From assembly GCA_001871535.1 (NCBI GenBank), contig MNVF01000048.1:1-42136 (forward strand): DNA of 42,136 nucleotides, read 5' to 3'. Under the pieces are notes generated by a model, which saw only the letters and a program-made list of their open reading frames with translations, searched no databases and had not been told where the DNA came from. This document shows, one piece after another, positions 469 through 42,136 of the stretch. This DNA comes from Candidatus Micrarchaeota archaeon CG1_02_49_24 (GTDB lineage: Archaea > Micrarchaeota > Micrarchaeia > Anstonellales > UBA8471). The translations under genes and the position numbers were made by a program. The stretch's first letter is position 1; the number at the start of each line of letters is the position of its first letter.

Positions 469-613
469 ATTTCCACCTCACCCTAAAGATTACCCTGATT
501 TTGGTGAAGCATTAATTTTTTTAAATCTGATTGCGATTTTGGGATTAAACCCCAAATTCCTTCACATTCACCCATTCCACGCTGATTAATACCGATTATT
601 AAAAATAGTTAAA

Positions 614-621
614 TTTATATA
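614..621 (+). promoter_or_regulatory. TATA-like box (tttatata) about 27 nt upstream of ATG 644
   Basis: A/T-rich octamer at the spacing expected for an archaeal promoter driving a leaderless mRNA. Recognised by eye only. Confidence 0.35.
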
Positions 622-643
622 GTTATTTATCTGTATCTTAACT

Positions 644-1519: not shown

Positions 1520-1520
1520 T

Positions 1521-2879: not shown

Positions 2880-2895
2880 GGGGTTCTTCCCTATT

Positions 2896-3705
2896 TCATA
2901 TCCCAAACTCCTTCACATTCACCCACTCAGCGCTGATTAATGCCCACCAGTCAAGCGCAAGCCCCTGGAGGACGTATTCATATGGCAGGTAGCCATAGCC
3001 CTTGTCCCCCCACTCATCGCCCCAGGAATTCCTTATTATGAACGCGCCGGTGGATTTCCCTATTCTCATGCCGTCATCATATCCAACTGCCAGAACCGCA
3101 TGGCCCCCAAGCACTGATTCGCCCTTTTCAGGGAACGGGATTTTGCCTTCCTTTGCTTCCCTGATTGAGTTATAGACAGTAAACCCGAACATTACCGGGA
3201 TTTCCCCTGCCAGCGTTTCCCGTATGTTTTGTAGGATTTTTTCCTCAGATTTTGCCTGCTCGTCCAATCGGAAGTATTTGAGCGCCTGGTAATTCTGGGC
3301 AAATGAGTAGCAAAAGGCCGGGGGCTCGCTGTCAATTTCTTTCTCAGAATATTCCCAATACTTCTCAGGCGGGGCGCCGAAGAGTACGAGCGCGCCCATG
3401 GTTGTGCGGATATAAGCGCCGGTATCGCCTGTCTGCTGCATCAAATTCCTGGTTGCCTTGTAGATGAACAATCTTGAGACGGTTTCGCTTACTCCCAGCG
3501 CCTTCTTCCTTGAGAATTCGCAGATGCCCGCCGCGGCGTTGGCAGTGCAGGAGCCGATGTTGCCCTGATTAAAGATTGGTGTGCAGTATTTGCGCAGGTC
3601 AACCCTTTCAGAGGGCGCTGTTTGCTTCAGAAGCGAGCTTATTTCGGTTGTGTCTTTTGTGTAATCCCTTGTATCAGGAATGTCTGGAATCCAGCCGAAT
3701 TTCAT
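2896..3705 (-). CDS. Papain-like (C1 family) cysteine peptidase
   Basis: NQGNIGSCTANAAAG (catalytic Cys), GGHAVLAVGYDD (His) and IRNSWGDEWGDKGYGYLPYEY (Asn-Ser-Trp). MKFGW at 3705 is the likely start. The track extension to 3798 translates an A/T-rich promoter. Confidence 0.85.
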   Translation of the reverse strand: MKFGWIPDIPDTRDYTKDTTEISSLLKQTAPSERVDLRKYCTPIFNQGNIGSCTANAAAGICEFSRKKALGVSETVSRLFIYKATRNLMQQTGDTGAYIRTTMGALVLFGAPPEKYWEYSEKEIDSEPPAFCYSFAQNYQALKYFRLDEQAKSEEKILQNIRETLAGEIPVMFGFTVYNSIREAKEGKIPFPEKGESVLGGHAVLAVGYDDGMRIGKSTGAFIIRNSWGDEWGDKGYGYLPYEYVLQGLALDWWALISAEWVNVKEFGI

Positions 3706-3867
3706 AGAAACCACCGCGATAAAGTATATACAAATGATTAGATAAAATGAAGGGTTGGAAACTGATACTTGCTCGAAAAGGATAAAATCATTAAACAAAA
3801 CTAGATTTAATCCAATTTAATTGAATGGATTCCACCAGTCTCTGACTTGACCCTTGTGTCAGGATTG

Positions 3868-3955
3868 GATTTTACGAAGATACTGCGTATCATTCGAAAC
3901 CCGGATTGAGCCAATTAGGCTCAATAGTGCCGCATGCAGCATTTGCTGCATACGG
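3868..3955 (+). repeat. Degenerate member of the structured repeat family (5' module only)
   Basis: gattttacgaaga..tcattcgaaa closing helix as in copy 2, followed by hairpins attgagcc-aatt-aggctcaat and gcatgcagc-attt-gctgcat. Confidence 0.4.
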
Positions 3956-3969
3956 TCCTGCGCCGTTGC

Positions 3970-3987
3970 GATGAACTGCGAGGAAAC
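3970..3987. repeat. 18-nt direct repeat gatgaactgcgaggaaac (left copy) flanking the AbiE cassette
   Basis: Identical 18-mer at 5852-5869. Both encode VSSQFI on the minus strand in frame with flanking gene halves. Confidence 0.8.
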
Positions 3988-4095
3988 CCTCACCCCCCTG
4001 CCGCGCAGGTATATTCCCACGCTGTTTTTGGATGAAGTGCCTTTCGGGGGAAAGCGCATCGCTATCCATAAAAGAGTCAGAAATTCTCGTGTCAT
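3988..4095 (-). pseudogene. N-terminal half of a DUF1931/histone-fold-like small gene (separated from its C-terminal half)
   Basis: ..SSKNSVGIYLRGRGVR then the VSSQFI core. After the core, the reading frame continues into unrelated or repeat sequence (track ORF 3859-4095). Confidence 0.35.
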
Positions 4096-4165
4096 TTTAC
4101 TTATATACCTGCCACGACATCATGCAGTGGAGGGCCTTGCGCCATTTCCCGTGCCATGGGGGCGT

Positions 4166-4966
4166 TCAGGCTTGCACATTCTCCAAAAACCGGTTGACCT
4201 GGTCCGCAACGATATTTCTTCCGTATCTGTTTTCAGTAAAAATTTCAACCTGGAACGGGCCCATCTGGTTCGCGTTCATGAACTTCTCCCTGACAACCGA
4301 AAGGGAATGCGCAAGCAGCTTTTCCATTCCCGGTGCAAGCTTCCTGCCGGAAACGGCCTTATTGAAATATTCCGCAGCCATCTCCGGGCTTCCGCCATAG
4401 TGCGTGAGCGCAAAAACATCATAGGAGTCCTTCGGCTTTGCCCTTCCGTCCAGTGCCTGCCCCTTGAGCGCGAGCGAGCCGACTAGGTCAGCCACCTTTA
4501 TGCTGGTTTTCACAGCCCCGTTGCCAGGCAGAACCGTTTCCACCTCCTGCCCGAAGTTGAACTCAAAAGCGAGATTCAGGCCTTCAAACGTGAAAGCCTG
4601 CAGGTCAGCCTGCACGTCCTTCAGGCCAATGTACTTTGCGCCTTCCTTGTCGCAGAGAAAGTCAAGGTGGATGCCATAGTCCTTGCCGTCAACCGGCGAT
4701 TTCACATCCCTTGAAAACCTGAATTCGTTCTCCTGTTCATAGCCAAGCCCGAGGACGCTCTTCTTTATCGTGTCGTATTTCTGCATCACTTTTGTGCGGA
4801 GCGCCAAATCTATGTCTATGCTCCCGCAATGGTCGAAATGCCCCCTTGTTATGAAATAAGGCGCCCGGCCTCCGGTAAGCACGATATCATTGTGGTATCG
4901 CTTCAATTCCAGGCCAAGCTCAAGCAGGGCTGATTTTGACGCGCTGGTTTCCTGAGTTCCATACAT
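4166..4966 (-). CDS. abiEii: AbiEii-type nucleotidyltransferase (type IV TA toxin family)
   Basis: IVLTGGRAPYFITRGHFDHCGSIDIDLAL NTase signature. 266 aa. Lies 4 nt downstream of the AbiEi-like gene. Confidence 0.7.
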   Translation of the reverse strand: MYGTQETSASKSALLELGLELKRYHNDIVLTGGRAPYFITRGHFDHCGSIDIDLALRTKVMQKYDTIKKSVLGLGYEQENEFRFSRDVKSPVDGKDYGIHLDFLCDKEGAKYIGLKDVQADLQAFTFEGLNLAFEFNFGQEVETVLPGNGAVKTSIKVADLVGSLALKGQALDGRAKPKDSYDVFALTHYGGSPEMAAEYFNKAVSGRKLAPGMEKLLAHSLSVVREKFMNANQMGPFQVEIFTENRYGRNIVADQVNRFLENVQA

Positions 4967-4970
4967 GGGC

Positions 4971-5633
4971 TCATTTCCCCTCTTTCCATCGTTTTTGGAT
5001 ATTTTTCAGTATCTCCCCGGCCGCCTCTTCGCCCCTCCCGGGATAATTCAGCAAATCCGCATAGAGCTGCACGTCTGAAACAACCCTCACGCCATCTATC
5101 GGGTTTGAACCGTAAAAAACACCGCTATTGCCGGCAATCGCGAACTTCACGTTCCCCCCGCTCTCAATCGGCCTTAGCCCGGCCATGCCTGCCCAGTATT
5201 CCGCGTCTTTTTCATTTCTCACGTATATGTGCGCACCCATCGGCCTTACGAACGGCGCGGAAAGGAGCGCGCCTGCCTGGCAGGTGAACGCATATTCCGG
5301 GCCCTGTTTTCCCTTGAAACGCGCGAACAGGAGGGAGACATCATTTTCCTCCATATAATACTCAAGGAAGCGCGTGTTTGCGGCAAAGTTGCGGTAGTTC
5401 GCCCAGCGGCGCAGCAGGTCTTCAGGGGCCATAATCTTAAGCCCGCCCCTGTCAGTGTCGCGCAGTGCCGCCCGTTCATTTATGAGCGCCCTGCTGACCG
5501 CGGATGCCCAGCGCAGCGAAACCCCGGCTTCCTTGCAAATCTCGCGGAGAGTCCAGGTTTTCGGATATTTCACAAGCAGGGCCCGGAGAATATCCTCTGC
5601 CTTGCCCCGGAAGATGTTCACTGTTGCCGCCAT
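4971..5633 (-). CDS. abiEi: AbiEi-type wHTH antitoxin/transcriptional regulator
   Basis: N-terminal wHTH (WTLREICKEAGVSLRWASAVSRALINE). C-terminal VSDVQLYADLLNYPGRGEEAAGEIL is typical of AbiEi C-domains. Confidence 0.65.
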   Translation of the reverse strand: MAATVNIFRGKAEDILRALLVKYPKTWTLREICKEAGVSLRWASAVSRALINERAALRDTDRGGLKIMAPEDLLRRWANYRNFAANTRFLEYYMEENDVSLLFARFKGKQGPEYAFTCQAGALLSAPFVRPMGAHIYVRNEKDAEYWAGMAGLRPIESGGNVKFAIAGNSGVFYGSNPIDGVRVVSDVQLYADLLNYPGRGEEAAGEILKNIQKRWKEGK

Positions 5634-5755
5634 GCAAATACTATGTTTACCTATATTTATATATGTTTACTTTATGTATACATAACTTCTGCGCGAGAGG
5701 ATGTTTACCTTCCTTTATATATGTTTACTAAAAGTAAACATACTCGCCCGACCCC

Positions 5756-5851
5756 TTACAAATCCTGCGGCATCACCGTGCTCCTTCCGTTCTTTTCCGC
5801 CCTTTTGATTGCAGCTTCAAGGATTTCCTTTACTTTCGCATCGAGTTGCGG
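5756..5851 (-). pseudogene. C-terminal half of a DUF1931/histone-fold-like small gene
   Basis: PQLDAKVKEILEAAIKRAEKNGRSTVMPQDL* directly follows the VSSQFI core. Sequence upstream of the core (track ORF up to 5947) does not resemble the family N-terminus. Confidence 0.5.
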
Positions 5852-5869
5852 GATGAACTGCGAGGAAAC
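5852..5869. repeat. 18-nt direct repeat gatgaactgcgaggaaac (right copy)
   Basis: Identical to 3970-3987. Extended similarity gttgcg(g)gatgaactgcgaggaaac. Confidence 0.8.
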
Positions 5870-6038
5870 TCGCCCGGCTGGGCGAAGAGCTCGTTCCAGT
5901 GGAAGTGAAATACCAGAATCAGATAAGCAACAGCGATTACAATGCAATCAGGAAATTCAAGCACGGCATAATAGCAACCAAAAAAACGTTTGAGGCAAAG
6001 GGCCAGCATGTTGCGATACCATTGCCGATACTGCTGCT

Positions 6039-6080
6039 ATTCGTATGAATGCCGGGAAGCCAGCCGAATTTCATAGAAAC
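6039..6080 (-). pseudogene. Remnant of a second peptidase 5' end plus upstream region
   Basis: ccagccgaatttcatagaaac (6060-6080) is identical to 3691-3711. It encodes MKFGWLPGIHT.. versus MKFGWIPDIPDT.., then diverges. Confidence 0.6.
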
Positions 6081-6221
6081 ACCCAAAAGAATTTTTATAA
6101 ATAAGGAGAATATAATGGGAGGGGGTTGGATGGTTGATTAGATTTGTCACAGCTTCAGCATATCTCTCAAAATAGCTGCCATGCTTGCTATGTCCTCCTG
6201 TTCCATAAAAAGGGAAAGTTA

Positions 6222-6350
6222 TTATTGGGGTTCGGTTTTGGAGTGTTCTCTTTCGTATTTTAACCAGTCCAGGTCGCTTGCGTCATTCCAGGCTTTGAAC
6301 TCTTCCTTCATCTCTTTTTCTGTGGGTTTAGATTTTGATGTTCTTTTCAT
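6222..6350 (-). CDS. Small hypothetical ORF (42 aa), not in track
   Basis: MKRTSKSKPTEKEMKEEFKAWNDASDLDWLKYEREHSKTEPQ*. It starts right after the aattgaatggattccacc motif. No recognisable family. Confidence 0.25.
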   Translation of the reverse strand: MKRTSKSKPTEKEMKEEFKAWNDASDLDWLKYEREHSKTEPQ

Positions 6351-6360
6351 TCAATTGAAT

Positions 6361-6487
6361 GGATTCCACCTGTCGAGCCGATGCAACCACCAGTCAGAGA
6401 CAGGTGAAATCCATAGCGTCAACAAGCATGCGCCCCGAGCGAAGCGAGCAAGCCACTGGTCTATGACCAGTGGTGGGCGCATGCTTA
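6361..6487. other. Two large palindromes immediately 3' of hsdR (possible terminator or repeat)
   Basis: ggattccacctgtc (6361-6374) pairs with gacaggtgaaatcc (6399-6412). aagcatgcgccc (6424-6435) pairs with gggcgcatgctt (6475-6486) and encloses ccactggtc-tat-gaccagtgg (6453-6473). The outer 3' arm overlaps the hsdR stop. Confidence 0.45.
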
Positions 6488-9400
6488 TTGACTCCACTCT
6501 TTGGCAACTAATTCCGCCTGTTCTAGCACGGTTTGGGTAGCTTTTTCCTGTTTGTCAGGCGGATATCCGTATTTTCTCAATATTTTTCTGACGGCTATCC
6601 TTATCTCTGCCTTAACGCTTTCCCTGACTGACCAGTCAATTTTTACATTCCTTTTCAAGGTTTCAGTTAACTCACGTGCAATTTTCCTTAATGTTTCATC
6701 ACCAAGAACTTTGACTGCACTATCGTTTGTTTCCAGGGCATCGTAAAACGCCATTTCATCTTCCCTCAAATTCAGTAATTCCCCTCTTTTATCGTGCTTT
6801 TTCATCTCTTTTGCCAGCTCTATAAGCCGTTCAATTACTTCAACAGTCTGTATATTCCTGTTCTGATATTGACTGATCGTTTTTTCCAGCAACTCTGTAA
6901 AAGATTTAGCTGCAACCTTATTCTTCTGTTCACATACTTTGATTTGGTCATTAATCAGCTTTTTCAGCATCTCTAGTGCGAGGTTCTTCTGCTCCATCCC
7001 CTGCACTTCAGCAAGAAACTCATCTGACAATATGGAGATGCCAGGTTTTTTCAACCCTGCAATTTCGAATATGTCTATTACCTTGTCAGAGGCAATGGCC
7101 TTCGAGACCAGTTGCCTAAGCGGTATATCATAATCCTCTTCAGAATACCCTGGTTCGCTTCCCGTAAGTTTGCCCAAATATGCTTTCAACGTCTGGAAAA
7201 ATCCCAGTTCATCAGCAATTTTCATTGCTTCCTCATGGGGCACGGATAAGGCAAAGGCGCGCTTCAACGCAGCAACATTTTTGAAAAATCTTTTTTGCCC
7301 ATTTTCTTGCCTGAGAATATGATTCATTGCATCTCTTAGAATCGTCTCTTTTTTTGAAAGCGCTGCTGTGGCAAAATCGTTATAATCAAACCCATGAAAC
7401 ATGCTGGATACTATCTCATATTTTTCGCGCATGATTTTGATGGCATCCTCCTGTTGGAATACTGGAGTACCTCCCCCACCGCTTTTAGTATATGTAAGGG
7501 TTGCTTCCTTAAGTGGTTGGATTATTCCTATATAATCAACGACCAGCCCGCCTGGTTTACCCTTGAAAACCCGGTTCACCCTTGCGATCGCCTGCATCAA
7601 CCCATGCTCTTTCATAGGTTTGTCAATGTATATTGTGTGAAGGCACGGCACATCAAACCCGGTAAGCCACATATCCCTGACGATAACGAGTTTAAGTTCA
7701 TCACCTGGGTCTTTTATCCTGTTTTCTATCATTTTCCGTTGTAGTTTGGTTCTCATATGCTCTCTTGCAGCGCCGGTTATGACTACTTTGATAGCGCCCT
7801 TGTCGTGCTCTTTGCTATACCATTCTGGCCGTAGTTTGACTATCGCATCATGCAAATCTATGCAAATCCTCCTGCTCATGCATACTATCAAACCTTTTCC
7901 GTCTAATGCGGCTTGCCGTTGTTCAAAATGGCTGACAATATCCTCGGCTATGTGCCGGATTCTTTTTTTTGCCCCTACGACTTTTTCCATTCGTGCCCAT
8001 TTTGTTTTCAATTTCTCTTTTGTTTCGGTTTCCTCAGCTTCAGTTATCTCTTTAAAGTCAGACTCAATTTTCGGCATTCTTTCAGTTTTCAGCCCTATTT
8101 TCGCAAGCCTGTTCTCGTAATAAATCTGGACGGTCATGCCGTCGTTTACGGATTGTTTCATGTCATAAATATCCTTGCATCCTCCGAAAACTGCGGTGGT
8201 GCTCCGGTCATTCGTTTCAATGGGCGTAGCCGTGAACCCTATGAACGATGCGTTTGGCAGGGCGTCCCGCATGTGCCTGGCAAACCCGTCTATGAAATCG
8301 TATTGGCTCCTGTGCGCTTCATCTGCGATTACTACAATATCCCTTCTGCCTGAAAGGAGCGGGAATTTTTCTCCTGCCTCAGCTAAAAATTTCTGGGCGG
8401 TTGTAAAGACGATTCCGCCAGACGCAACCTTCAGGAACTCTTTTAGCGCTTGTTTTGTTGCTGCCTGTTTTGGCATATTCCGCAATAACTCGCTGCATTT
8501 GCAAAAGGTTTCAAACAGTTGGTCGTCAAGGTCGTTCCTGTCTGTGATTACAACTATCGTCGGGTTTCCCATTGCGTCTACTATCTTCCCGGTGTAGAAT
8601 GCCATTGTCAGGCTTTTCCCGGAGCCTTGCGTATGCCAGATTATGCCAGCCCGTTTATCCCCAGAAGGACTGGCAGCTTCAATGGTGGATTTTAGCGCAG
8701 CTAATACGGCATAATATTGGTGATAGGCTGCAAGTTTTTTTATTATCTTTTCAGAGCTTTTGGATTTTTCTTTTTCAAATGTTATAAAATGCCTGACCAA
8801 ATCAATAATTACCTCCTTCCTGAGCATATCCAGAATAAGAGTATCCCTGGAAAATTGGTCCAACTCCTCCAAAACCTTGCCGTCAATGGCTTTCCATTCC
8901 ATAAACCGCTCTATATCCGAGCTGATAGTGCCGGCCCAGGCCTTAACGCCGTCGCTTATGATTATTATCTCATTGTAATGAAAGAGCGTGGATATCTCCC
9001 TAAGGTATCGTTGCATCTGAGCATAAGCTGTTGCCTTGTCTGCCTTTTCTTCTGCAGGATTTTTGAGCTCAATAACGACTAATGGCAGGCCGTTTACGAA
9101 TAGCACGATGTCAGTCCGCTTGTTTATGCCGTTTTCCTTCACAGTGAACTGGTTCACTGCCAGGAATTCGTTATTTTTGAGATTGGAGAAATCAACAAGC
9201 TTAACTGTGTCATCTTTGATAGAGCCATCCGTTCTCCGATATTGAACATCCACGCCGTCAACAAGCATTTTATGGAACAGATGGTTGTTGTGGATTAGCT
9301 TCTGGCTCTCAGCGCGCAGGACTTTTTTAACTGCTTCCTCTTTTGCATCGCCCGGAATCGCAGGGTTGGACCTGTCAATTGCATCGTTCAGCCGCTCAAT

Positions 9401-9544
9401 CAGCACTACCTCAGAATAGCTCTTTCGTTCTGGAGTTTTTCCATCAGGCGCGATGTCCGGGCCGAACAATATACTGTAGCCGTTCTGGCGCAGCTTTTGC
9501 AGAACGTTTTCTTCAATTCCGGATTCGGTTATTATGGATGCCAT
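6485..9544 (-). CDS. hsdR: Type I restriction enzyme R subunit
   Basis: 1019 aa. Walker A TQGSGKS, DEAH box IADEAHRSQ, helicase C-terminal motifs, and the typical type I HsdR N- and C-terminal regions. Confidence 0.95.
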
Positions 9545-10467
9545 TTATTTTCACCTTTTGTTAGGGTTTTATAGTTCGTATGTTCCCGTGTTATTGATGT
9601 TGGATTATTAGAAATAAACGTGACATCATCATCAATTAGTTCTTTCATTTTTTTTATTAAATCAATTGATTTGCTTAAACCATTAAAAGTAGTCACAACT
9701 ATCGGAAGAATTGGGTTACGTTTTGTTGTTAAACTTAGCTTATTGGCATATGGTTGTGGTGAAAGGTAAATAAAATTGTCAACGTCATCGAGATCTTTAA
9801 TTTCAAATCCTTCGTCCATACTAACTTTCATTATCTTCGCGTCAGTGACCAAAAGTGGGAAGCACGCATGAATTGGAAACATATTGTCAATTCCTTTATA
9901 ATTATTTAGTTCTCTTCTATGCACGTATTCGCAGGCAAAAGCTATATCTACTGACTCATCATAAACGATGTTATTACCCTCGTCCATTACTTTTTTCATA
10001 TTTCCCTTTTTTGTATCCTTATTTGAATTCTCGTCGACAATAGCTATATTCTCGCTGACACTTATTTTTCCTGCTAACTCAAAAAAACGTTTTGCTGATA
10101 TAACTCCACCCAAATAATGCTGAAATGTAAATCCATCATTAAGAAAGTTTGGTAACCTTAATATAAAATTTTCATTGTTAAAGTTCTCTTTTTCAAAAAT
10201 GCATATGTTTTTTGTTGCCCATTTTTTCACTTCACCTATAACTCTAACCGTAAGAAGGACGTTCATGTCTATATCCCTAGAGTGTAAAACATTAACTCCA
10301 AAATGGGCTTCAATATCCAAGTCTTTGGAAATGTCGTTCCCCGTTCTATCCGTGTTGTATTTAGATTGATATACTGTTAAGCCAAAGTCATGTAACTGTT
10401 TTCTAACTTTAATCTCTAATGGGAACCCTGTTTCTTTAAGGATGTCTTTCAAATCATTTTTGTTCAT
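9532..10467 (-). CDS. Hypothetical protein with PD-(D/E)xK-like N-terminal motif, embedded between hsdS and hsdR
   Basis: ..KDLDIEAHF..(27 aa)..VIGEVKKW (D...E-x-K). Overlaps hsdS by 4 nt (ATGA) and hsdR by 13 nt. Visibly more A/T-rich than hsdR. Confidence 0.45.
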
Positions 10468-11765
10468 GTTTTATCAACTACATTCAGAGGAACTCTGATT
10501 TTACCAGACATAAGCCTAGGGAGCAATGAATCGCGAATATCTGATAATGTTCTACATTCTAACAAGTTTCCCCTGATTCTTTCTATAACCTCATTGACCT
10601 TTCTTTCAAAAACCATAACCAATTTTTTGTTTGGAACAAGAATATGCATATCTCTAATGGCGTCCGAATTTGTAGCGGTCGCTATTGAGGATGTACTACC
10701 TAGGGATTCGAAATTAAAATTTTTCAGATAGAAATAAAGATATTTTGAACTTATGAGTGAATCCTTAAGCTGGAATTGAGCTATTGCTTCGTTGGACGCC
10801 ATTGCCTTTGAAGCGATCCCTATTCTTCCAACTGTTAATTTAAAGCTCAACATAACTGTTCCTTCGGGAATTATGGGTATCCGAAACTTTTGGATTGCTC
10901 CTTGTTTTAGATATTCTGAGGTGTCGAATATGAACATTCCCGACTTTCCCATATCTTTAATTGACACCCAACAGACGTCAATAGCTTCTGTTGTGAACCA
11001 TTCTGCCTCCTTTCGGGGCGGCGTCCGTCCAATCATGACTTCAGCTACGTCGTCAATACGCTTTATCGCCCACCCCTCCGGTATCTCTCCCAATTCCGAC
11101 TCAATCATCCTCCCGCCGCTTGACTTGTACGGCTTCCCGTTCTCGTCGGGAAACTCGAAGTCAACGAACCAGTGCTTGAACAACGCTTCCGCCATCGATT
11201 CAAGCGTTGCGTTCATCTCGCGGTTGAGCTCGATTTTGGCGTCTAAGTTAGAAAGGATTTTGGAGATAGCGTGTTGTTCATGAAGGGGCGGACAAGGTAC
11301 TAATAGCTTTGAAATTGTATTGGCGTTGAATTGAGGCTGTGCTCCGCCGTTTACTAGATTATTTGCTTGATTCCAATATAGACTACTTCGTGAGAATTGA
11401 AAGAAGAAATTACTGCCGATAATATTCTCCTTAAATAATAGCCTGATTAGAAAGCCTCCATATGTTGCCTTGAATTCTTTATCAAATAGATAGGTTTTCC
11501 CAAAGGATGCGCCAGTTCTTGCAACTAGAACATCGTTTTTCTTTAGAATCCACTCTTTTTTGACTCGATCTTTTCCAATAAATGTCAAACCGGTTTTGTT
11601 AAGAAAACCGTCTGAAGTTATGTCTGTAATTCTGAGGTATACATACTCGCCTGTTTCTTTTGCTCGTTCCCCTAACCCGTACTGAAAGCCAGCTATCTCT
11701 CCTAGTTCTCTTACTGCCCAGTCTTCAGGGATTTTTCCGATTTCGGTTTCTTTGAATTTTGTCAT
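10464..11765 (-). CDS. hsdS: Type I R-M specificity subunit
   Basis: Two variable halves separated by the conserved LHEQHAISKILSNLDAKIELNREMNATLESMAEALFKHWFVDFEFP, plus C-terminal LSDIRDSLLPRLMSGKIRV. ATG 11765 forms an ATGA overlap with the upstream stop. The track start at 11783 is less likely. Confidence 0.9.
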   Translation of the reverse strand: MTKFKETEIGKIPEDWAVRELGEIAGFQYGLGERAKETGEYVYLRITDITSDGFLNKTGLTFIGKDRVKKEWILKKNDVLVARTGASFGKTYLFDKEFKATYGGFLIRLLFKENIIGSNFFFQFSRSSLYWNQANNLVNGGAQPQFNANTISKLLVPCPPLHEQHAISKILSNLDAKIELNREMNATLESMAEALFKHWFVDFEFPDENGKPYKSSGGRMIESELGEIPEGWAIKRIDDVAEVMIGRTPPRKEAEWFTTEAIDVCWVSIKDMGKSGMFIFDTSEYLKQGAIQKFRIPIIPEGTVMLSFKLTVGRIGIASKAMASNEAIAQFQLKDSLISSKYLYFYLKNFNFESLGSTSSIATATNSDAIRDMHILVPNKKLVMVFERKVNEVIERIRGNLLECRTLSDIRDSLLPRLMSGKIRVPLNVVDKT

Positions 11766-12184
11766 TTGCCATTCCACATCCATCTAGGTCTGTTTGGTGC
11801 AAAGTTCCAGACATTTTTGAATAAATAAACGTTATCAAAAAAAGTATCATCTCCTATTAGTATTGCACCTTCAATATATGCTAATTTTTCAGTCGTTCCC
11901 ATGATAAAATAATCTTTTTCAGAAATTTTTTTATCAAAATCTGCAGACAGTATCTGTTCTATCTCTTTTTTCCTGGCAATTAAAAGTTCGCAGCTTTGGC
12001 AAAATCGGCAGGTTTTGTTCAAATTAAGAATCATTTTTCTTTTTTTTATTGCAATCGTTAGAGGAAGTTTTTTTATCTTCGTTGCATGATCGCATTTGGG
12101 GCATTTGGAAAAAGCACAATCAGGATAGGGATTCAGAAAAAAATAATATCTTTCTTTCATCTTTCTGGATTTACCCATAGTCAA
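11762..12184 (-). CDS. Zn-ribbon hypothetical protein embedded in the R-M operon
   Basis: CPKC...(33 aa)...CRFCQSC cysteine pairs. 140 aa. A/T-rich. No family recognised. Confidence 0.5.
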   Translation of the reverse strand: MTMGKSRKMKERYYFFLNPYPDCAFSKCPKCDHATKIKKLPLTIAIKKRKMILNLNKTCRFCQSCELLIARKKEIEQILSADFDKKISEKDYFIMGTTEKLAYIEGAILIGDDTFFDNVYLFKNVWNFAPNRPRWMWNGK

Positions 12185-21921: not shown

Positions 21922-22617
21922 ATGATTAAGGCAATCCTATTCGATTTGGACAATACCCTGATTGACTTCTCAGGCTTCAAGCGGGAGAGCGCGCTTGCTG
22001 CAGCCAGTGCCATGAGAAAGGCAGGCGTGCATCTTTCCGGGCATTCGCTTTACGGGCGCATTTACGAAGTCTATAATGAGAAGGGGATTGAGTACCAGCG
22101 CACGTTTGGGGATGTGCTCTACGGATTGGATTTGGACCCACATACGCGCGAGCGTGCACGGCAGGCGGCAATTATTGCCTATACCAAGAAGAAATATGAG
22201 TGCCTGAAGCCACGGCCAAAGGCCATGCAGCTGCTAACATCCCTCAGGGCGAAATACACGCTGGCCATTGTCACGGATGCGCCCAGGGACAAGGCATGGC
22301 AGCGGCTCATTCTCTCAGGGCTGGACGGGTTTTTCTATCCTGTTGTGACTTTCAACGATACGGGCGAGGAGAAGCCTGCGGTTGCGCCGTTCAGGAGGGC
22401 GCTTTCCATCTTGAAAGTGAAACCTGTGGATGCGCTATTCGTAGGTGACAATCCGGAAAGGGACATTATCGGCGCGAAAAAGATTGGGATGAAAACCTGC
22501 CTTGCGAAATACGGCTGCCAGGATTACCACGAAGAGATGGATGTGGCGGATTACAGGATTGGGAAGTTTGAGGAACTGAAAGAGGTTATTGAAAGATTGA
22601 AAGCCAGTGAGCAATAA
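21922..22617 (+). CDS. HAD-superfamily hydrolase
   Basis: MIKAILFDLDNTLIDF (DxDxT motif I), IVTDAP (motif II) and GDNPERDIIGAKKIGMKT (motif IV). ATG 21922 is preferred over the track start at 21874. Confidence 0.85.
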   Translation: MIKAILFDLDNTLIDFSGFKRESALAAASAMRKAGVHLSGHSLYGRIYEVYNEKGIEYQRTFGDVLYGLDLDPHTRERARQAAIIAYTKKKYECLKPRPKAMQLLTSLRAKYTLAIVTDAPRDKAWQRLILSGLDGFFYPVVTFNDTGEEKPAVAPFRRALSILKVKPVDALFVGDNPERDIIGAKKIGMKTCLAKYGCQDYHEEMDVADYRIGKFEELKEVIERLKASEQ

Positions 22618-25257: not shown

Positions 25258-25314
25258 TTCCATGGTCTCTCTAACCTTTTACGGCGGCGCGAACGAAATC
25301 GGCGGCAATAAAAT
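25258..25314 (+). pseudogene. 57-nt duplicate of the RNase J gene 5' end (direct repeat with 26488-26544)
   Basis: ttccatggtctctctaaccttttacggcggcgcgaacgaaatcggcggcaataaaat is identical at both places. It encodes MVSLTFYGGANEIGGNKI and then breaks off. Confidence 0.9.
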
Positions 25315-25320
25315 TACAGC

Positions 25321-25401
25321 GAAGAGATGGATGTGGCGGATTTCAGGATTGGGAAATTCGAGAAATTGCTGGATGTAATGGAAAGGATTGGAGGGGATTA
25401 G
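25321..25401 (+). pseudogene. Diverged duplicate of the HAD hydrolase 3' end
   Basis: Encodes EEMDVADFRIGKFEKLLDVMERIGGD*, compared with the HAD C-terminus HEEMDVADYRIGKFEELKEVIERLKASEQ* (22530-22617). It directly abuts the RNase J 5' fragment. Confidence 0.8.
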
Positions 25402-26481: not shown

Positions 26482-26491
26482 GGTAATTTCC

Positions 26492-27850
26492 ATGGTCTCT
26501 CTAACCTTTTACGGCGGCGCGAACGAAATCGGCGGCAATAAAATCCTCCTTGAGGACAAGGGCGCCAGAATCTACCTTGACTTCGGCCAGAGCTTCAGCT
26601 TCGGCGAGGATTATTTCTACGACTGGCTGCAGCCAAGGAGCGCACACGGCCTGGAAGTGTATTTCGAGTTCGGCATGCTGCCCAAGGTGCCAAGGCTTTA
26701 CAACAAAGCCATGCTTGAAAAAACTGACTTGGAATACGAAAAGCCCGACATTGACGCGGTATTCATCTCGCACTCGCACTCTGACCACGTGAACCATCTG
26801 CCATTCATTGACGAATCCATCCCTGTTTACATGGGCCACGGCACCCATAAATTGCTTGAGACATACCACACGCTTTACCCACAATTCAGCGACATAGGCG
26901 AACACGCCAATCTCAACCTCTTCAAGTCAGGGGATATAATACAAGTCAAACACCTGGTAATCGAGCCTATCCATGTGGAGCATTCGGTGCCGGGAGCCTA
27001 CGGGTTCATAGTCCATACCAGCAAGGGGCCGCTAATCTATACAGGAGATTTGCGCATGCACGGTCCGCAATGCGAAATGACAAAGGAATTCGTGGAAAAG
27101 TCCGCGGCCTGCAAGCCCTATGCCATGCTCGTAGAAGGCACGAGGATGGGCTATGGGCAGCATCATAACTTCACCGAGGCGGAAGTGGAAAAGGAAGTTG
27201 AGCAGAAAATAAAGGCATCCAATGGGCTTGTATTCGGCTATTTTGCCATGTCCAATGTGGACAGGTTCATGTCATTCTACCGCGCAACCGTGAAGAACGG
27301 GCGGAAGCTGGTGATTGACACCAGGCATGCATATATTATTGATAAGCTGAGGGAGAAAATCCCTGCGCTGCCGGACGTGATGGCTGACTGGAATATCCTG
27401 GTTTATTACAGACAGGCAAAGAGCGGCACCTACAAGGAAACGGATTACTACAATTATGAGCGCAAATTCATGCCCAAAATGATAACCCACAAGGAAATTG
27501 CAAAAAGCCAGAAGGAGTTCGTGATGCACATGAGCTTCAACAAGCTGATGGAACTGGTTTACATCCAGCCGAAGAATGCAGACTATATCTATTCGTCATC
27601 CGAGCATTTCCTGGAAGGCGAGGAGAATGAGGAGGAAAAGAGGGTGCTTGACAACTGGATGCGGCATTTCGGGGTGGCTTTTCACAAAGCACACTGCTCA
27701 GGCCATGCGAGCAGGCAGGACTTGGAGGATATGGTGAAGAAAATCAATCCGAAGGTGCTTATCCCCATCCATACGCAGAATGCCGGGGATTTCAAGGGGA
27801 TGCATTCAAATGTGTGGATACCTGAAAAAGAAAAGAGAATGGAGATATAA
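26492..27850 (+). CDS. rnj: Archaeal-type RNase J (MBL / beta-CASP ribonuclease)
   Basis: FYGGANEIGGNKILL N-terminus, HSHSDH (HxHxDH), and C-terminal HCSGHASRQDL..PIHTQN beta-CASP motif C. ~450 aa. Confidence 0.8.
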   Translation: MVSLTFYGGANEIGGNKILLEDKGARIYLDFGQSFSFGEDYFYDWLQPRSAHGLEVYFEFGMLPKVPRLYNKAMLEKTDLEYEKPDIDAVFISHSHSDHVNHLPFIDESIPVYMGHGTHKLLETYHTLYPQFSDIGEHANLNLFKSGDIIQVKHLVIEPIHVEHSVPGAYGFIVHTSKGPLIYTGDLRMHGPQCEMTKEFVEKSAACKPYAMLVEGTRMGYGQHHNFTEAEVEKEVEQKIKASNGLVFGYFAMSNVDRFMSFYRATVKNGRKLVIDTRHAYIIDKLREKIPALPDVMADWNILVYYRQAKSGTYKETDYYNYERKFMPKMITHKEIAKSQKEFVMHMSFNKLMELVYIQPKNADYIYSSSEHFLEGEENEEEKRVLDNWMRHFGVAFHKAHCSGHASRQDLEDMVKKINPKVLIPIHTQNAGDFKGMHSNVWIPEKEKRMEI

Positions 27851-28254: not shown

Positions 28255-29172
28255 TCAGCCAACGGCATCCAGATAAATATCTAACGCCTGCCCGGCATCC
28301 TTTGCAACCAGCATGGAAAGCGGGCGGAAATCGCCTTTGTCTGCCTTTTCAAGCGCAGAATAGTATGCACGGCGCTCTTCCCTTCTCAGAATTGTTGGGG
28401 GAAACCCTGCACGCATAAGGCGCAAGTTCATCAATAAGCGCGCCAGCCTGCCGTTCCCGTCAATGAACGGGTGGATTCTGACGCATTCGTGGTGTATTTT
28501 GACCGAGGAATAAATCGCTTCTATGCCTCTGCGTTTGTCATTTAGTTCGGAATAGACTCCCTTCATCAGCTCCGGCACCTTGCGCCAGTTCGGAAGAACT
28601 ACTTTCGAGCCTTGGATGAAAACCTGCTCGTGGCGGTAAAAGCCTGCGTTATTGGGGCTGATTTTGTCAAGAATTACTGCGTGGAGATTAAGCACATCCA
28701 TCTCAGTTATTCCCTTTTTCCCATCTGCCATTTTCTCAAGCAGGCCTATTGCCTCTGCGTGGTTGGTCGCCTCCAGGTGCTCATTCACAGACTTGCCGCG
28801 TATCGTCATGCCCTTGCGGAGAACAAGCCAGGTTTCTCGCAGTGAGAGGCGGTTTCCCTCTATTGCGTTGGAGTGGTAAGTCATATCGACCTCGAATTTT
28901 TCACGGAGGCGGTTTACCATCTCTGGGGAAAGCGGGCGCAGCTTGTTTAGCCGCTCCAGCTTGCCTTCGAGTGCTTTTGCCAGGTGTTCGTCAATCCATG
29001 TGCCATTGCCTGCGTTAAATTCAATGCCAGTTTTTTTTGCGTATTCTTCAGCCTCGGCAGCACTTGGGAAATATTCGAGGACGTTCTGCTTCACCTTGCC
29101 ATCTTCCCGCCTATTTTCAACTAGTTCATAGTAGTAGGTGTTGCCTCTTGCCCTTCGCCGGATGAATGCCAT
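28255..29172 (-). CDS. Fic/DOC family protein (AMPylase-type)
   Basis: HPFIDGNGRLARLLMN matches the HxFx(D/E)GNGRxxR active-site motif. Confidence 0.9.
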   Translation of the reverse strand: MAFIRRRARGNTYYYELVENRREDGKVKQNVLEYFPSAAEAEEYAKKTGIEFNAGNGTWIDEHLAKALEGKLERLNKLRPLSPEMVNRLREKFEVDMTYHSNAIEGNRLSLRETWLVLRKGMTIRGKSVNEHLEATNHAEAIGLLEKMADGKKGITEMDVLNLHAVILDKISPNNAGFYRHEQVFIQGSKVVLPNWRKVPELMKGVYSELNDKRRGIEAIYSSVKIHHECVRIHPFIDGNGRLARLLMNLRLMRAGFPPTILRREERRAYYSALEKADKGDFRPLSMLVAKDAGQALDIYLDAVG

Positions 29173-29920: not shown

Positions 29921-30145
29921 ATCAGATTTTACGAAGAGCCATCCGCCTGCGAAGCAGGCGGTATTGGCTCATTCGAAAATCAATTCTCCTTGCGAGGAGA
30001 AATCTCGACGGCTGCTGCCATCGAATTCTCGTGAATTTGAATTCGCCTGTTGGCGAATAGCTCTCGCATCCCATGGATGCTCGATGGCGTCTTGGCATTC
30101 ATCCCCGCACGAAGTGCGGGGTATTCTGCCAATTCACGATAAATA
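29921..30145 (+). repeat. Hairpin-rich structured repeat, copy 2 (full length, with two extra hairpins)
   Basis: atcagattttacgaagagcc. Closing helix 29924-29939/29966-29981. Hairpins ttctcct-tgcg-aggagaa (29984-30001), gacggc-tgct-gccatc, attcgcc-tgtt-ggcgaat (30041-30058) and gcatc-ccatg-gatgc (30066-30080). Cap ccccgcac-gaa-gtgcgggg (30103-30121). Confidence 0.7.
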
Positions 30146-36098: not shown

Positions 36099-36172
36099 CG
36101 CCCCCGCCGGGATTTGAACCCAGATATCAAGCTCCGCAAGCTCGCGTTCTGTCCAGGTTAGACTACGGGGGC
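36099..36172 (-). tRNA. tRNA-Arg (anticodon GCG)
   Basis: Acceptor GCCCCCG/CGGGGGC. Anticodon arm CGAGC-TTGCGGA-GCTTG. T arm CTGGG-TTCAAAT-CCCGG. Discriminator G. No encoded CCA. The D arm was parsed by eye only. Confidence 0.85.
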
Positions 36173-36204: not shown

Positions 36205-36347
36205 GAAAGGTTGAAGGGGCGCAAGAGGAAGAACTATGTCTGTACGAGGGCGACAGCCGCTTGCGTAAATTTACGAAGTAAGCAGGTTTGAAAGGGCTGC
36301 AAGCCATTTCGGAGGGGTTATAGGGGAACCGCAAAGCAGGTTCCCCA

Positions 36348-36372
36348 TCTGTCCAGGTTAGACTACGGGGGC
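36348..36372 (-). repeat. 25-nt duplicate of the tRNA-Arg 5' end (acceptor + D arm)
   Basis: GCCCCCGTAGTCTAACCTGGACAGA is identical to 36148-36172. It is followed by a GGGGAACC-TGCTTTGC-GGTTCCCC hairpin, and no matching 3' acceptor strand is present. Confidence 0.85.
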
Positions 36373-36478
36373 ATCTCTGTGTTAATCAGATATAGATTTA
36401 AATATTCAGTCAATATAAACTTATACATTAAACGTATAGACAGCTTGCTGTTTAATTTATGTTTTTGAGGTGTTTAGC

Positions 36479-36671: not shown

Positions 36672-36920
36672 ATGGCAGATGTTGCGATAACGTTCAAGGT
36701 GCTCCCGCAGGGGATTGAGGAATTTGAAAGCGTGAAAAGTGAAATAGCCAAGATGAACCCCCATTCAATAGGCGAGGAGCCGATTGCCTTTGGGTTTAAG
36801 GCAGTGAGAGTAACCTTTGTCATGGGAGACGAGGGCGGGGTTGACGAGCTCGAGCAGAAATTGGGTGCGATAACCGGAGTTAGCTCGGTTGACACGGTTT
36901 CGGTTGGCAGGATAAATTAG
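36672..36920 (+). CDS. ef1b: Translation elongation factor aEF-1 beta
   Basis: MADVAITFKVLPQGIEEFESVKSEI..EEPIAFGFKAVRVTFVM.DEGG..ELE..L..I.GV.SV has the typical aEF-1beta length and pattern. Confidence 0.85.
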   Translation: MADVAITFKVLPQGIEEFESVKSEIAKMNPHSIGEEPIAFGFKAVRVTFVMGDEGGVDELEQKLGAITGVSSVDTVSVGRIN

Positions 36921-36926
36921 GTAGAT

Positions 36927-37018
36927 TGAATTTCGCCTGATGGCTTTTCGCCAGTTGGCAAAAATCTCGGCGGCTGTTGCCGCCGATCGCCTGATGGCAA
37001 AAGCGAAAGCTTACGAAA
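36927..37018 (+). repeat. Partial member of the structured repeat family (central module)
   Basis: ttttcgcc-agtt-ggcaaaaa + tctc + ggcggc-tgtt-gccgcc (36945-36984) mirrors copy 1 ttttcgc..gcgaaaa + tctc + aaggac-tgtt-gtcctt. cgcctgatggc occurs twice (36934, 36988). Confidence 0.5.
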
Positions 37019-39660: not shown

Positions 39661-41979
39661 ATGCTTTCCATGATTACCTCTTTACGCTTAATCAATTGGA
39701 AATCCCACCATGATTCCTCGTTCAAATTCACGAAAGGAATTAACCTGCTGGTGGGCATCATGGGCTCAGGGAAGAGCAGCGTGCTGGATGCTATTTGTTT
39801 CGCGCTGTTCGGCACGTTTCCAGCCCTTGAAAGGGGAAAGGTGAAGATTGCCGACCTGGTTAATTTCAGGAATAGGGATGCCGGATCAGTGATTGAGCTG
39901 GAGCTGGAGATTGGGGCAGATAAATATGGCATCAAGAGAGTGATTAAGGGAATCGGGGACACCAAGAAAAGCGATGCATTTTTCTACAAAAACGGAAGTC
40001 TGGTGGACAAGGGCGTGGCAGGAGTCAATGCGCTTGTGGAGAAGCATTTTGGCATTGATTATGATTTGTACACGCGGGCGATTTACTCGGCGCAAAACGA
40101 GATTGATTATTTCCTCAACCTGCCCCCCAGGAAAAGAAAGGAGGAGATTGACAGGCTGCTGGGGCTTGACAGGTTTGAATTGGCGCGCGGCAACCTGGTG
40201 GCCGTAACGAATAGGGTAAAATATATACTCACAACCATGCAGGAAGAGAGCGGGCTGAGGAAGCCTGAGGAATTGAAAGCGTCAATAGCCGGGCACGAGG
40301 CGAAACACGGCAAAATCTCAGGCGAGCTGGCCAGGCTCAGGCAGGAATCCGATGGACTGTCAAAGAGGGCAGGCGGGCTGAAATTGCAATACGACTCGCT
40401 CGCACAAAACAAAAAGCAATATGAGCAGATGTCCCAGCAGCAATCCAGGGCAACGATGATTGTGGAAAGGCTGGAGAGCGAGCTTAGGGATGCCGACACA
40501 GGCAAATTGGCAAAAGATTATGAAGAGCAAACGAATATCGTTGAAAGTTACAGGGTGCGGCTGGCGGATATACGTGCCAGCCTGAAAACCAGCCAGCAGG
40601 AGATGGGCAGGTATGAAAAGGAGGCAGGCGGGCTGGAGCGCGAGCTCAGCCAGATGGATGGAAAACGGGCGGAGGTTGAATTACTGCAGAGAAGCGTAAA
40701 AATAATCCTGGGCGATGCCGATTCAAAGCAATTTCTTGCGCTCCTCGAGCAGGAGACGAACAAGATGATTGGGCTGAAAAACCAGTTGGCAGCGGAAAAT
40801 GCGCGGGCAGGGGAGCTGAGAAAGCTCGAGGGGCTGCCTGATGCCGCGGGAACCTGCCCGGTGTGCAAGAAACCTTTGAGCGGCCATGAGGCATTGGTGC
40901 TCAAGAAAGAGCGGGAATTTGCAATCCAGACTATTGTTGAGGGCATAAAATCAATGGAACATGAGCTGATGGTGCTTACCACCAGCTATAAGATAAAGAA
41001 GGACTGCTATGAGCGGGCACGCTCATCTGCCGTGGGGATTGAAAGGTTGCAAACTGAATTGCTGGCTGAGCAGGGAGTCAAGGCAACGCTCGAGAGCCTG
41101 AAGGGCAGGCTGGAGATGGCACGGAACAGCCGCGAACTCCTGGAAAAGGAGGCGGCCGATTTGGATTCCCATCTGCAGAAGAATGCCCTCAGGCTCGGGC
41201 AGTTTTCACAGGTGAAGGCAAAATTCGACGAGCTGGATGCCAGCAAACAGGCGCTCCTTGAGGCAGGCAAGGCGCTGGCAGCCATTGATTATTCTGAAAA
41301 GGAGTTTGAATCGGTTGCCAAGGAGCTTGGGGAGGCGAAATTATCCCAGAAGGAAATCGAGGGGAAGCTGGCAATGGCCGCAAGGGAGGCGCAGTTTGTC
41401 TCTGAGAGATTAGTGGAGCTTAGGGCTGAGATGGCACGCAGAGAGGACAAGGGCAGGAAAATCGAGGCCTATGTGAATGCTGGGGTGGAGCTCAACAGGT
41501 TCAAGGAAGCGCTTGGCAAGACACAAATGACAGTCAGGGGCGATTTGATTGGCGCATTTAACGAGATTGTGAACGAGCTGTGGCCGTTTATTTACCCCTA
41601 CAGGGATTACACCCAAATCCGGCTGAATGTGACTGACATTGGCTATACATTCGAGGCGTTCAACGGCGAATGGAAATCATTCGAGGTGGTTGCCAGCGGC
41701 GGAGAAAAAGCCTGCCTGGCAATGGTGATGAGGGTGGCGTTTGCCATTGTGCTGGCGCCTGCTGCGGGCTGGCTAATCCTGGATGAGCCGACACACAATC
41801 TCGACAAGGAGGCAATTTTCATGTTCTCGGAAGCGCTTCAAAATAAAATACCCGGGATTGTGAACCAGACGTTTGTGATTACCCATGAAACATCGCTCCT
41901 GAATCTCACGGTGAACAAATACAGATTGGCAAGGGAGAAGGAATTGAATGAAGATACGGCTGTGGAAGTTGTTGCTTAG
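39661..41979 (+). CDS. rad50: Rad50/SbcC-like SMC-family ATPase
   Basis: Walker A GIMGSGKSSVLDAI, long coiled coil with Zn-hook CPVC (GTCPVCKKPL), signature SGGEKACLAM and Walker B LILDEPTHNLD. Confidence 0.85.
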   Translation: MLSMITSLRLINWKSHHDSSFKFTKGINLLVGIMGSGKSSVLDAICFALFGTFPALERGKVKIADLVNFRNRDAGSVIELELEIGADKYGIKRVIKGIGDTKKSDAFFYKNGSLVDKGVAGVNALVEKHFGIDYDLYTRAIYSAQNEIDYFLNLPPRKRKEEIDRLLGLDRFELARGNLVAVTNRVKYILTTMQEESGLRKPEELKASIAGHEAKHGKISGELARLRQESDGLSKRAGGLKLQYDSLAQNKKQYEQMSQQQSRATMIVERLESELRDADTGKLAKDYEEQTNIVESYRVRLADIRASLKTSQQEMGRYEKEAGGLERELSQMDGKRAEVELLQRSVKIILGDADSKQFLALLEQETNKMIGLKNQLAAENARAGELRKLEGLPDAAGTCPVCKKPLSGHEALVLKKEREFAIQTIVEGIKSMEHELMVLTTSYKIKKDCYERARSSAVGIERLQTELLAEQGVKATLESLKGRLEMARNSRELLEKEAADLDSHLQKNALRLGQFSQVKAKFDELDASKQALLEAGKALAAIDYSEKEFESVAKELGEAKLSQKEIEGKLAMAAREAQFVSERLVELRAEMARREDKGRKIEAYVNAGVELNRFKEALGKTQMTVRGDLIGAFNEIVNELWPFIYPYRDYTQIRLNVTDIGYTFEAFNGEWKSFEVVASGGEKACLAMVMRVAFAIVLAPAAGWLILDEPTHNLDKEAIFMFSEALQNKIPGIVNQTFVITHETSLLNLTVNKYRLAREKELNEDTAVEVVA

Positions 41980-42018: not shown

Positions 42019-42136
42019 ATCAGATTTTCCGAAGAGCCCATGACACTTTGGAGCGACCCGGGCCATGTGCGATTTCATGGGCGCTCGGGCGTCGGGTTTG
42101 CCACTCAGCATTGCCGTATGGCAAACCTCGCTCCGA
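42019..42136 (+). repeat. Hairpin-rich structured repeat, copy 3 (truncated by window end)
   Basis: atcagattttccgaagagcc is identical to copy 1. The interior differs but is still self-complementary (cccatga/tcatggg; ggagcga/tcgctcc; gtttgcc/ggcaaac). Confidence 0.6.

Follow-up and report, generated by a model that had tools for sequence, protein, structure and literature searches.

IS608 inserts 3′ of TTAC, and its cleavage sites are recognised through base pairing with 4-nt guides, one lying 5′ of each subterminal hairpin (PMC5934647). In the target-capture structure of IS608 these contacts include the pairs A+16:T-3 and A+17:T-4, with the guide about 15 nt from the cleavage site (PMC5934647). 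IS200/IS605 elements are present in more than 65% of Micrarchaeota genomes (PMC13343696), and the palindrome-associated transposable elements (PATEs) of this group often encode omega-RNAs on which TnpB acts in trans (PMC10055086). Here we describe a family of hairpin-rich repeats in Candidatus Micrarchaeota archaeon CG1_02_49_24, an uncultivated member of the DPANN, taking as our reference a copy at 29921-30140 of a 42,136-nt stretch of its DNA (hereafter the window; GC content 46.5%). Our reading, to which we would give a probability of roughly 0.8, is that the repeats are PATEs, that is, non-autonomous IS200/IS605-type elements that move by a Y1 single-strand mechanism. Their hairpins most likely serve a single-strand DNA transposase rather than form a new RNA gene.

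Like the PATEs of IS200/IS605, the repeats lack a protein gene and, in most copies, terminal inverted repeats, they make no true duplication, they carry subterminal hairpins at both ends, and genes for a Y1 TnpA and for TnpB lie on element-bearing contigs. As for IS608 and ISDra2, the site of insertion is defined by a short specific sequence, here a tetranucleotide, which remains on the left flank with the element 3′ of it. As in IS608, a 4-nt guide that would pair with the cleavage site sits 5′ of each hairpin foot; the N1:M2 and N2:M1 geometry is shared, and the spacing is 14 nt compared with 15 nt. The target TTAT and the element end TGAT differ from the TTAC/TCAA of IS608 (Helicobacter pylori) and the TTGAT of ISDra2 (Deinococcus radiodurans). 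Unlike in those two elements, a covarying closing helix of 12-16 bp surrounds each end hairpin, and up to a dozen extra internal modules, varying by subfamily, give element sizes from 86 to more than 500 nt.

The family also resembles the REP/BIME sequences and REPINs that RAYT (Y1-type) transposases mobilise in bacteria, with short GC-rich palindromes, hundreds of copies, clusters in alternating orientation and a presumed recognition as single-stranded hairpins by a HUH Y1 enzyme. REPs, however, are 20-40 nt long, extragenic and near-identical within a genome, whereas the units described here, at 86-500 nt, have defined ends, are found inserted in open reading frames (ORFs) and carry their own guide tetranucleotides. 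The pneumococcal BOX, the ERIC and the Correia/NEMIS repeats are similar in their modular optional sub-units, strong secondary structure and high copy number near gene ends. These have terminal inverted repeats with TA or similar duplications, or an unknown mobility mechanism, and to our knowledge none shows guide-target pairing. The attC sites of integrons likewise keep structure rather than sequence and are recombined as folded single strands, but they lie at cassette boundaries beside an integrase and attI and possess R and L boxes and extrahelical bases, a context that is absent here.

Insertion polymorphism and element boundaries

A 20-mer, ATCAGATTTT(C/A)CGAAGAGCC, has exact matches in the window at 1-20, 29921-29940 and 42019-42038, all on the plus strand, where none is expected by chance and shuffled sequences gave no match. 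A relative with three mismatches lies at 2837-2856. The first-pass annotation, which was made from the letters of the window, had recognised these three copies (copies 1 to 3) and counted five copies or partials in all. The remaining two are a degenerate copy at about 3860-3972 and a remnant at 2837-2862, and all five share one orientation. It was also correct that copies 1 to 3 have neither terminal inverted repeats nor an internal ORF. The ends required adjustment. Copy 2, which had been placed at 29921-30145, was delimited against 55 other copies and against empty sites; its start holds, while its true end is at 30140, giving an element of 220 nt with the last five bases belonging to the flank. 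Copy 1, given as 1-200, keeps its start and is refined to 1-195.

The insertion of copy 1 splits an ORF of 213 aa, which runs uninterrupted in L109 and in a diverged orthologue from Hainich, L122 (L numbers denote metagenome loci or contigs bearing the 20-mer or the flanking genes). Using ^ to mark a junction, the filled site reads ...CACG^ATAAAATACC and the empty allele gtatgtATAAAATACC. A second clean pair is provided by L175 (filled) and L118 (empty; ...gtcgga AT caattcgc), and a third, on the left side only, by L136 (filled) and L122 (empty). In each pair there is a single AT in the empty site and an AT at both element ends in the filled site. The filled and empty alleles differ by the element plus one AT, which is equally readable as a target ..AT^ joined to an element ending ..AT^. 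For copy 2 no empty site was found, and this copy is fixed in all 19 contigs examined from assemblies with the flanking genes. A 7-bp duplication around copy 2, GATAAAT, was considered and rejected as a coincidence of the end CGAT with a TTAT-type target; other copies have no such duplication.

The abundance, flank and guide counts given here and below are drawn from the matches listed in a metagenome scan with the 20-mer. It occurs in at least 117 loci from groundwater at Crystal Geyser (Utah) and Hainich (Germany), and the listed matches number at least 152, at no fewer than 110 distinct left flanks. A survey of related metagenome bins had been suggested by the first-pass annotation, and the present scan places the 20-mer at over 100 different sites of insertion. 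Four length classes (86, 148, 195 and 247 nt) are seen at 3-11 sites each, and sequence-identical versions of each of the four are found at 2-4 different sites. Among reconstructed empty sites a long open frame runs across the junction in 13 of 53 (about a quarter), and many other insertion sites are only a few codons away from where a gene ends. Some copies sit inside tnpB, in tnpA, in an IS605 leader and in other copies. Contigs of other assemblies with the same genes often end inside the repeats, as is expected of a multi-copy sequence. No element match was found in IMG/VR viral contigs, and a scan of genome contigs with a 16-mer returned chance matches only, none extending past the seed.

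We are almost certain that the repeats are mobile DNA. The first-pass annotation had offered two readings, a recombination module and a structured RNA. The former is supported by the more than 100 sites, the presence/absence polymorphism, the identical subfamilies and the guide-target rule described below; for the latter, nothing points specifically to an RNA gene.

Helix covariation and guide-target pairing

In plus orientation the element reads, in order, AT^CAGATTTT(C/A)CGAAGAGCC, followed by one to six hairpins. The closing helix P1 is then completed by GGCTCATTCG(G/A)AAATC, after which come the optional hairpins B and C and inserted units. The last part, domain D, reads TTCTCG-outer helix-CATTCAT-cap hairpin-TAT(T/C)C-outer helix-CG^AT. 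These junction motifs are conserved while the stems vary freely between subfamilies. The parts of copies 1 and 2 are given below, with LE, the left end, and RE, the right end, named for the inferred top strand, which is the minus strand of the window.

Copy 1
1-195, minus strand: whole copy, a member of the 195-nt burst subfamily
1-63: right-end part, with the 20-mer (1-20), an extra hairpin (21-40), the hairpin IP_R (41-59) and tatg (60-63; guide CATA)
66-124: middle, with the P1 partner (66-81), B (85-104) and C (109-124)
128-197: left-end part, with D (128-193), the hairpin IP_L (157-175), tatt (176-179) and the target ataa (194-197)

Copy 2
29921-30140, minus strand: complete 220-nt non-autonomous element
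29921-29940, minus strand: RE terminal 20-mer, top strand GGCTCTTCGTAAAATCTGAT^, with the predicted cleavage motif TGAT at its end; one arm of helix P1
29943-29961, minus strand: IP_R, hairpin ccgcctgc gaa gcaggcgg, with tatt at 29962-29965; the top-strand guide AATA abuts the hairpin foot on its 5′ side
29966-29981, minus strand: second arm of P1 (ggctcattcgaaaatc)
29984-30001 and 30007-30022, minus strand: optional modules B and C, both absent from the 148-nt and 86-nt subfamilies
30026-30138, minus strand: LE domain D, with ttctcg, outer helix cgtgaatt.../...aattcacg, loop cattcat/tattc and cap hairpin
30042-30057 and 30066-30080, minus strand: extra hairpins inside domain D, specific to this copy
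30103-30121, minus strand: IP_L, hairpin ccccgcac gaa gtgcgggg, with tatt at 30122-30125; guide AATA, 14 nt from the element end
30139-30142, minus strand: target ataa, TTAT on the top strand, with the element joined 3′ of TTAT; AT recurs at 29921-29922

The two copies can be compared helix by helix. The cap hairpin is ccccgccc/gggcgggg in copy 1 and ccccgcac/gtgcgggg in copy 2; the second hairpin is ttttcgc/gcgaaaa in the former and ttctcct/aggagaa in the latter, with tctc after both; and the third is aaggac/gtcctt compared with gacggc/gccatc, where copy 2 has one C-A mismatch on the plus strand that would be G-U on the minus strand. The architecture proposed for these copies in the first-pass annotation, with three hairpins, a re-registered closing helix and two extra hairpins in copy 2, was confirmed by reading and by alignment. 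RNA folding relative to shuffled sequences gave z-scores of -12.1 (plus) and -10.8 (minus) for copy 1 and of -8.3 (plus) and -9.3 (minus) for copy 2, and DNA folding of the minus strand of copy 2 gave -9.7.

Pairing was counted formally over 16 distinct versions of the 3′ domain (domain D). In these, 96.8% of cells pair, compared with 78% in shuffles and 36-49% when the partners are slid, and 11 of the 19 pairs (55 cells) have changes on both sides. The covariation score is 0.50, against 0.03-0.09 in the sliding controls. The substitutions reported earlier as helix-preserving are real. G-U pairs are rare (3.5% on the plus and 2.7% on the minus strand), the helices being almost purely Watson-Crick, and the mean folding energy is nearly equal for the two strands (-113.4 and -111.1 kcal/mol). 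Helix-preserving changes are what the hairpins of a single-strand DNA transposon need, and therefore nothing in them is specific to an RNA gene.

Two further observations concern the hairpins. In L162 (-6098) the loop of the first hairpin is inverted, GCTTCGC in place of the GCGAAGC of most copies, on the same stem; such a flip-flop is typical of DNA-level palindrome processes. In addition, three-way junctions built as GACACTTTGGAGCGACC...CGTCGGG...CCTCGCTCCGAAGTGTC, whose stems covary, turn up repeatedly as modules at L199 (2081 onward, plus), L117 (4071 onward, minus), L134, L208 and positions 42039-42136 of the window, and some of them form arrays that exceed 700 nt.

The target sequence is constrained on one flank only. 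Following ...CGAT the flank has an A at 47 of 59 sites and a second A at 50 of 59, and the other flank is without comparable bias. Read on the top strand, the flank at the D end is TTAT at 38 of 40 sites of the main subfamily. The flank bases are derived from the target and not carried by the element, because they are present in empty sites, TTAT included, or in the uninterrupted ORF; in several cases with the guide GATA they are part of a further copy, within its conserved motif GGCTCAT^TCG. On the minus strand the layout is 5′-TTAT^CGTGAAGTTGGCAG-AATA-(CCCCGCCC TTC GGGCGGGG)...(C/A)ATA-(8-bp hairpin)...GGCTCTTCGGAAAATCTGAT^-3′, with an LE spacer of 14 nt between the TTAT junction and AATA and an element ending ...CTGAT.

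The left guide and the flank change together. Over 57 distinct sites the guide AATA goes with TTAT in 38 of 40 cases, GATA with TCAT in five of eight, AGTA with CTAT in three of four and ATTA with ATAT in two of three. For the guides other than AATA the flank is as predicted at 10 of 17 sites, against an average of 1.3 and at most 8 over 100,000 permutation trials (p <= 1e-5). This rule places guide position 1 opposite target position 2 and guide position 2 opposite target position 1, as in the IS608 structure. The right-end guide is CATA at 61 of the 88 sites with a locatable P1 arm GGCTCATTCG, which make up the dominant subfamily. CATA is also the guide of the burst subfamily, and by the same rule it fits the terminal TGAT at four of four positions. 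Judged from these sequences, the guide and flank sets of the subfamilies appear to be a within-population example of the guide-directed retargeting that was engineered earlier for IS608.

Proposed mechanism and alternative explanations

In the mechanism that we favour, a Y1 (HUH) TnpA supplied in trans would bind the two subterminal 8-bp hairpins on the single-stranded top strand. The guide tetranucleotides would pair with the cleavage sites, TTAT in the left flank and TGAT, the last four bases of the element, at the right. The element would then leave as a single-stranded circle and reinsert 3′ of another TTAT, producing neither inverted repeats nor a real duplication. The RE-LE junction of such a circle would read AAAATCTGAT^CGTGAAGTTGG (...^CGTGAAG...), and a precise-excision allele at copy 1 would read gtatgtATaaaatacc. 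The internal hairpins B, C, U and V and the two long closing helices would be passengers or regulators. The data establish that the elements move, where exactly they end, that the target is constrained on one side and that guides with targets, and helix arms with each other, covary; the enzyme, the strand and the single-stranded intermediate are the parts of this scheme that we infer. No head-to-tail (RE-LE, circle-like) junction was found in the assembled contigs. Y1 tnpA and tnpB genes are present on the element-bearing contigs L154, L220, L173 and L157, and the contigs with elements include representatives of at least four lineages of TnpB. A search of long or unterminated copies for tnpA or tnpB found neither gene.

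A number of points weigh against this interpretation. No tnpA lies between PATE ends in the at least 117 loci of the matches listed, and the resident IS200 (L154 131-800) and IS605 (L173) differ from the PATE in their hairpins as well as in their ends (TTAG/TTTAG^ and ...TTCAC^). The guide classes other than AATA are small (n = 3-8) and related by descent, and the right-end guide of copy 2, AATA, fits TGAT at three of four positions, with one mismatch. The strand assignment rests on analogy with IS608, because the pairing covariation is strand-symmetric. Both end domains are closed by long covarying helices that would hold the cleavage sites away from the guides, and three identical 86-nt copies contain the RE domain only; the P1 and D closing helices, the gain and loss of modules and the RE-only copies are left unexplained by the canonical mechanism. 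The GAA triloops are, oddly, on the strand opposite the inferred top strand, and the AT at both ends could be a 2-bp duplication. Finally, neighbouring copies are in the same orientation in 14 cases and in opposite orientation in seven (p = 0.19), a bias that is not significant.

It is conceivable, but in our view unlikely, that the family is more than a plain PATE. The long covarying closing helices could hide both cleavage sites, and the exchangeable hairpin modules, which are nested, occur in both orientations and form arrays of more than 700 nt, could be a second tier of smaller mobile hairpins parasitising the PATE. Alternatively, the structures could be a built-in device, cruciform or regulatory, by which a single-strand transposon becomes able to move in the absence of a replication fork. 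The RE half could, in addition, act in trans as the guide RNA of a TnpB encoded at an unlinked site. This last idea can be developed into an alternative of its own, in which the PATE has an RE half that is also transcribed as an omega-RNA-like guide, comprising P1 and the inner hairpins, ending ...GGCUCUUCGGAAAAUCUGAU and continuing into the flank. An unlinked TnpB with TTAT as its target-adjacent motif (TAM) would re-cut emptied donor sites and so retain the element. PATEs are reported to encode such RNAs often, for use by TnpB in trans (PMC10055086), the TnpB lineages noted above share contigs with the elements, and the RE half folds into several stems within a compact stretch of about 85-130 nt, its end coinciding exactly with that of the element. 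The 3′ regions and right ends of the four resident tnpB lineages (...TAGTTCAC^, ...TAATTGAC^, ...TAGCTGAC^) are, however, unlike the PATE right end, there is no Rfam match, G-U pairs are few and the folding energy is strand-symmetric, and we consider a guide function of this kind quite doubtful.

Two other explanations seem to us very improbable. In one, the repeats are a family of structured non-coding RNA genes whose hairpins are kept by selection on RNA function, as their very stable folds and the abundant compensatory changes beside conserved single-stranded junction motifs might suggest. Yet the copies are polymorphic insertions, some of them inside ORFs, tnpA and tnpB, identical copies are found at many loci, and an internal tetranucleotide covaries with the flank, something not expected of an RNA gene. 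The proportion of G-U pairs (about 3%, nearly equal on the two strands) also speaks against RNA, and no Rfam family matches. The only match in the window at the Rfam 15 gathering score is a tRNA-Arg, and E-value scans of copy 2 and of the full copy 3 gave nothing better than E = 0.47 (15.6 bits), in agreement with the first-pass annotation, which saw no resemblance to an RNA family and proposed the Rfam comparison. The other explanation is a classical MITE (miniature inverted-repeat transposable element) moved by a DDE transposase, or by an IS607-type serine recombinase, with the AT duplicated or crossed over. This would account for an AT that is present at both ends and once in empty sites, 86-nt members do have perfect 15-nt terminal inverted repeats, and an automated census gives very high MITE densities in some DPANN genomes. 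Most copies, including copies 1 to 3, nevertheless lack terminal inverted repeats and have unrelated ends (ATCAG... and ...CACGAT), the target preference is one-sided and not symmetric, and the guide-target covariation is left unexplained. About 720 kb of associated contigs were searched by tblastn with two classical small serine recombinases, gamma-delta resolvase and Hin, and no serine recombinase was detected, although these are weak probes, IS607 TnpA being only distantly related. The first-pass annotation had itself named fragments of an IS element as an outcome at odds with its proposal, and this is essentially what emerged: the copies look like non-autonomous IS200/IS605-type elements.

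Resident insertion sequences, other copies and neighbouring genes

The resident insertion sequences are of interest in their own right. An IS200-type element of 670 bp with tnpA only is found in copies of 100% identity at L154 131-800 and L220 1976-2645, and as contig-end fragments in L144, L177, L200, L194, L195, L215 and L226. Because its copies are identical, this element has probably been active recently. It starts TTAG, with AAAC preceding the first hairpin, and by end similarity it does not appear to be the partner of the PATE. The resident IS605 (tnpA and tnpB) lies at about 1240-3360 of L173 (minus) and also in L138, L152, L162, L128, L130 and L219. Its left flank is TTTAG^ and its right end ...CCACCCGATTTATCGGGTGGTAGTTCAC^, with an RE guide GACG that fits TCAC by the IS608 rule, and its tnpB tail and leader are repeated hosts of PATE insertions. 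At two loci an IS200/IS605-family element starts 5-6 nt past a PATE right end in the same orientation (L154 121-134, CTGAT AAATG TTAG^; L188 at about 9240-9260, CTGAT AAG TAG^), which may be coincidence or a preferred landing zone.

Several candidate associations were rejected. The tnpA element of L157, with its PATE-like right end, proved to contain an old PATE fragment nested in an IS605 tnpB tail. Cases in which the element seemed to be part of tnpB (L138, L158 at the C-terminus, L190, L230 at about residue 40 and L182 at about residue 215) are insertions into that gene. The repeat was also considered as the omega-RNA of an adjacent 376-aa minus-strand ORF, in which neither a TnpB domain nor any other Pfam domain is present. 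L131 and L205 match by chance and are not related.

Besides copies 1 and 2, the window contains the following pieces, some of which were located by BLAST with all relatives:

42019-42136, minus strand: copy 3, starting 40 nt past the stop codon of a 772-aa SMC/Rad50-like ATPase gene (39661-41979) and cut by the window end
About 3860-3972, minus strand: degenerate copy reading ggattttacgaaga...ccgttgcgat^ga, with an approximate left boundary
2837-2862, minus strand: RE-end remnant of 26 nt, 22 bases of it identical to L170
24227-24248, plus strand: D-end remnant of 22 nt, in opposite orientation
36920-37010, no strand assigned: cluster of related hairpin modules without the 20-mer

The full copy 3 is about 434 nt long in L137, has extra three-way-junction (V) modules and ends ...GCTTCACGAT^AATTTTAG (L105, L137). 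An ORF with an HNH domain (2265-2879) takes its last 13 or so codons and its stop from the element remnant (2837-2879), so that on a small scale a piece of the element has come to serve as the end of a coding sequence.

The window has further notable features. Close to the tRNA-Arg(GCG) at 36099-36172, a 38-nt stretch on the minus strand (36336-36373) is 87% identical to the 5′ half of the tRNA. It covers the acceptor, the D arm and the start of the anticodon stem and is followed by an 8-bp hairpin; it has no T arm or 3′ acceptor, is not called by ARAGORN, and may represent a split tRNA, a pseudo tRNA or what is left of an integration site. A perfect 57-nt direct repeat (25258-25314 and 26488-26544) encodes MVSLTFYGGANEIGGNK, and at least its second copy is located where a metallo-beta-lactamase-fold gene (26492-27850) starts. 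A 73-nt repeat of 82% identity links 22523-22595 with 25313-25385. These repeats suggest recent tandem duplication or gene conversion. Defence and toxin-antitoxin genes are dense at 600-11800, at 28255-29172 and at about 38.0-38.5 kb; they include a MarR-like regulator with a DUF6036 nucleotidyltransferase, the HNH ORF, an AbiEi_2-like gene, the R subunit of a type I restriction system (6485-9544), a Fic protein and a HicA/HicB pair.

Taken as a mobile element, the family turns what had seemed a new family of RNAs into a well-defined transposable unit. The family stands out for the unusual modularity with which its hairpins are arranged, and it offers a clear case from nature of a target chosen by a guide. 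The defined ends allow easy masking of the copies and their use as a strain marker and as bait for the transposase of the family. Breaks of contigs inside copies plausibly add to the fragmented assemblies of Candidatus Micrarchaeota archaeon CG1_02_49_24. At about five copies in the 42 kb of the window, and with genes and other insertion sequences disrupted, the repeats represent a heavy parasite load for a small DPANN genome.

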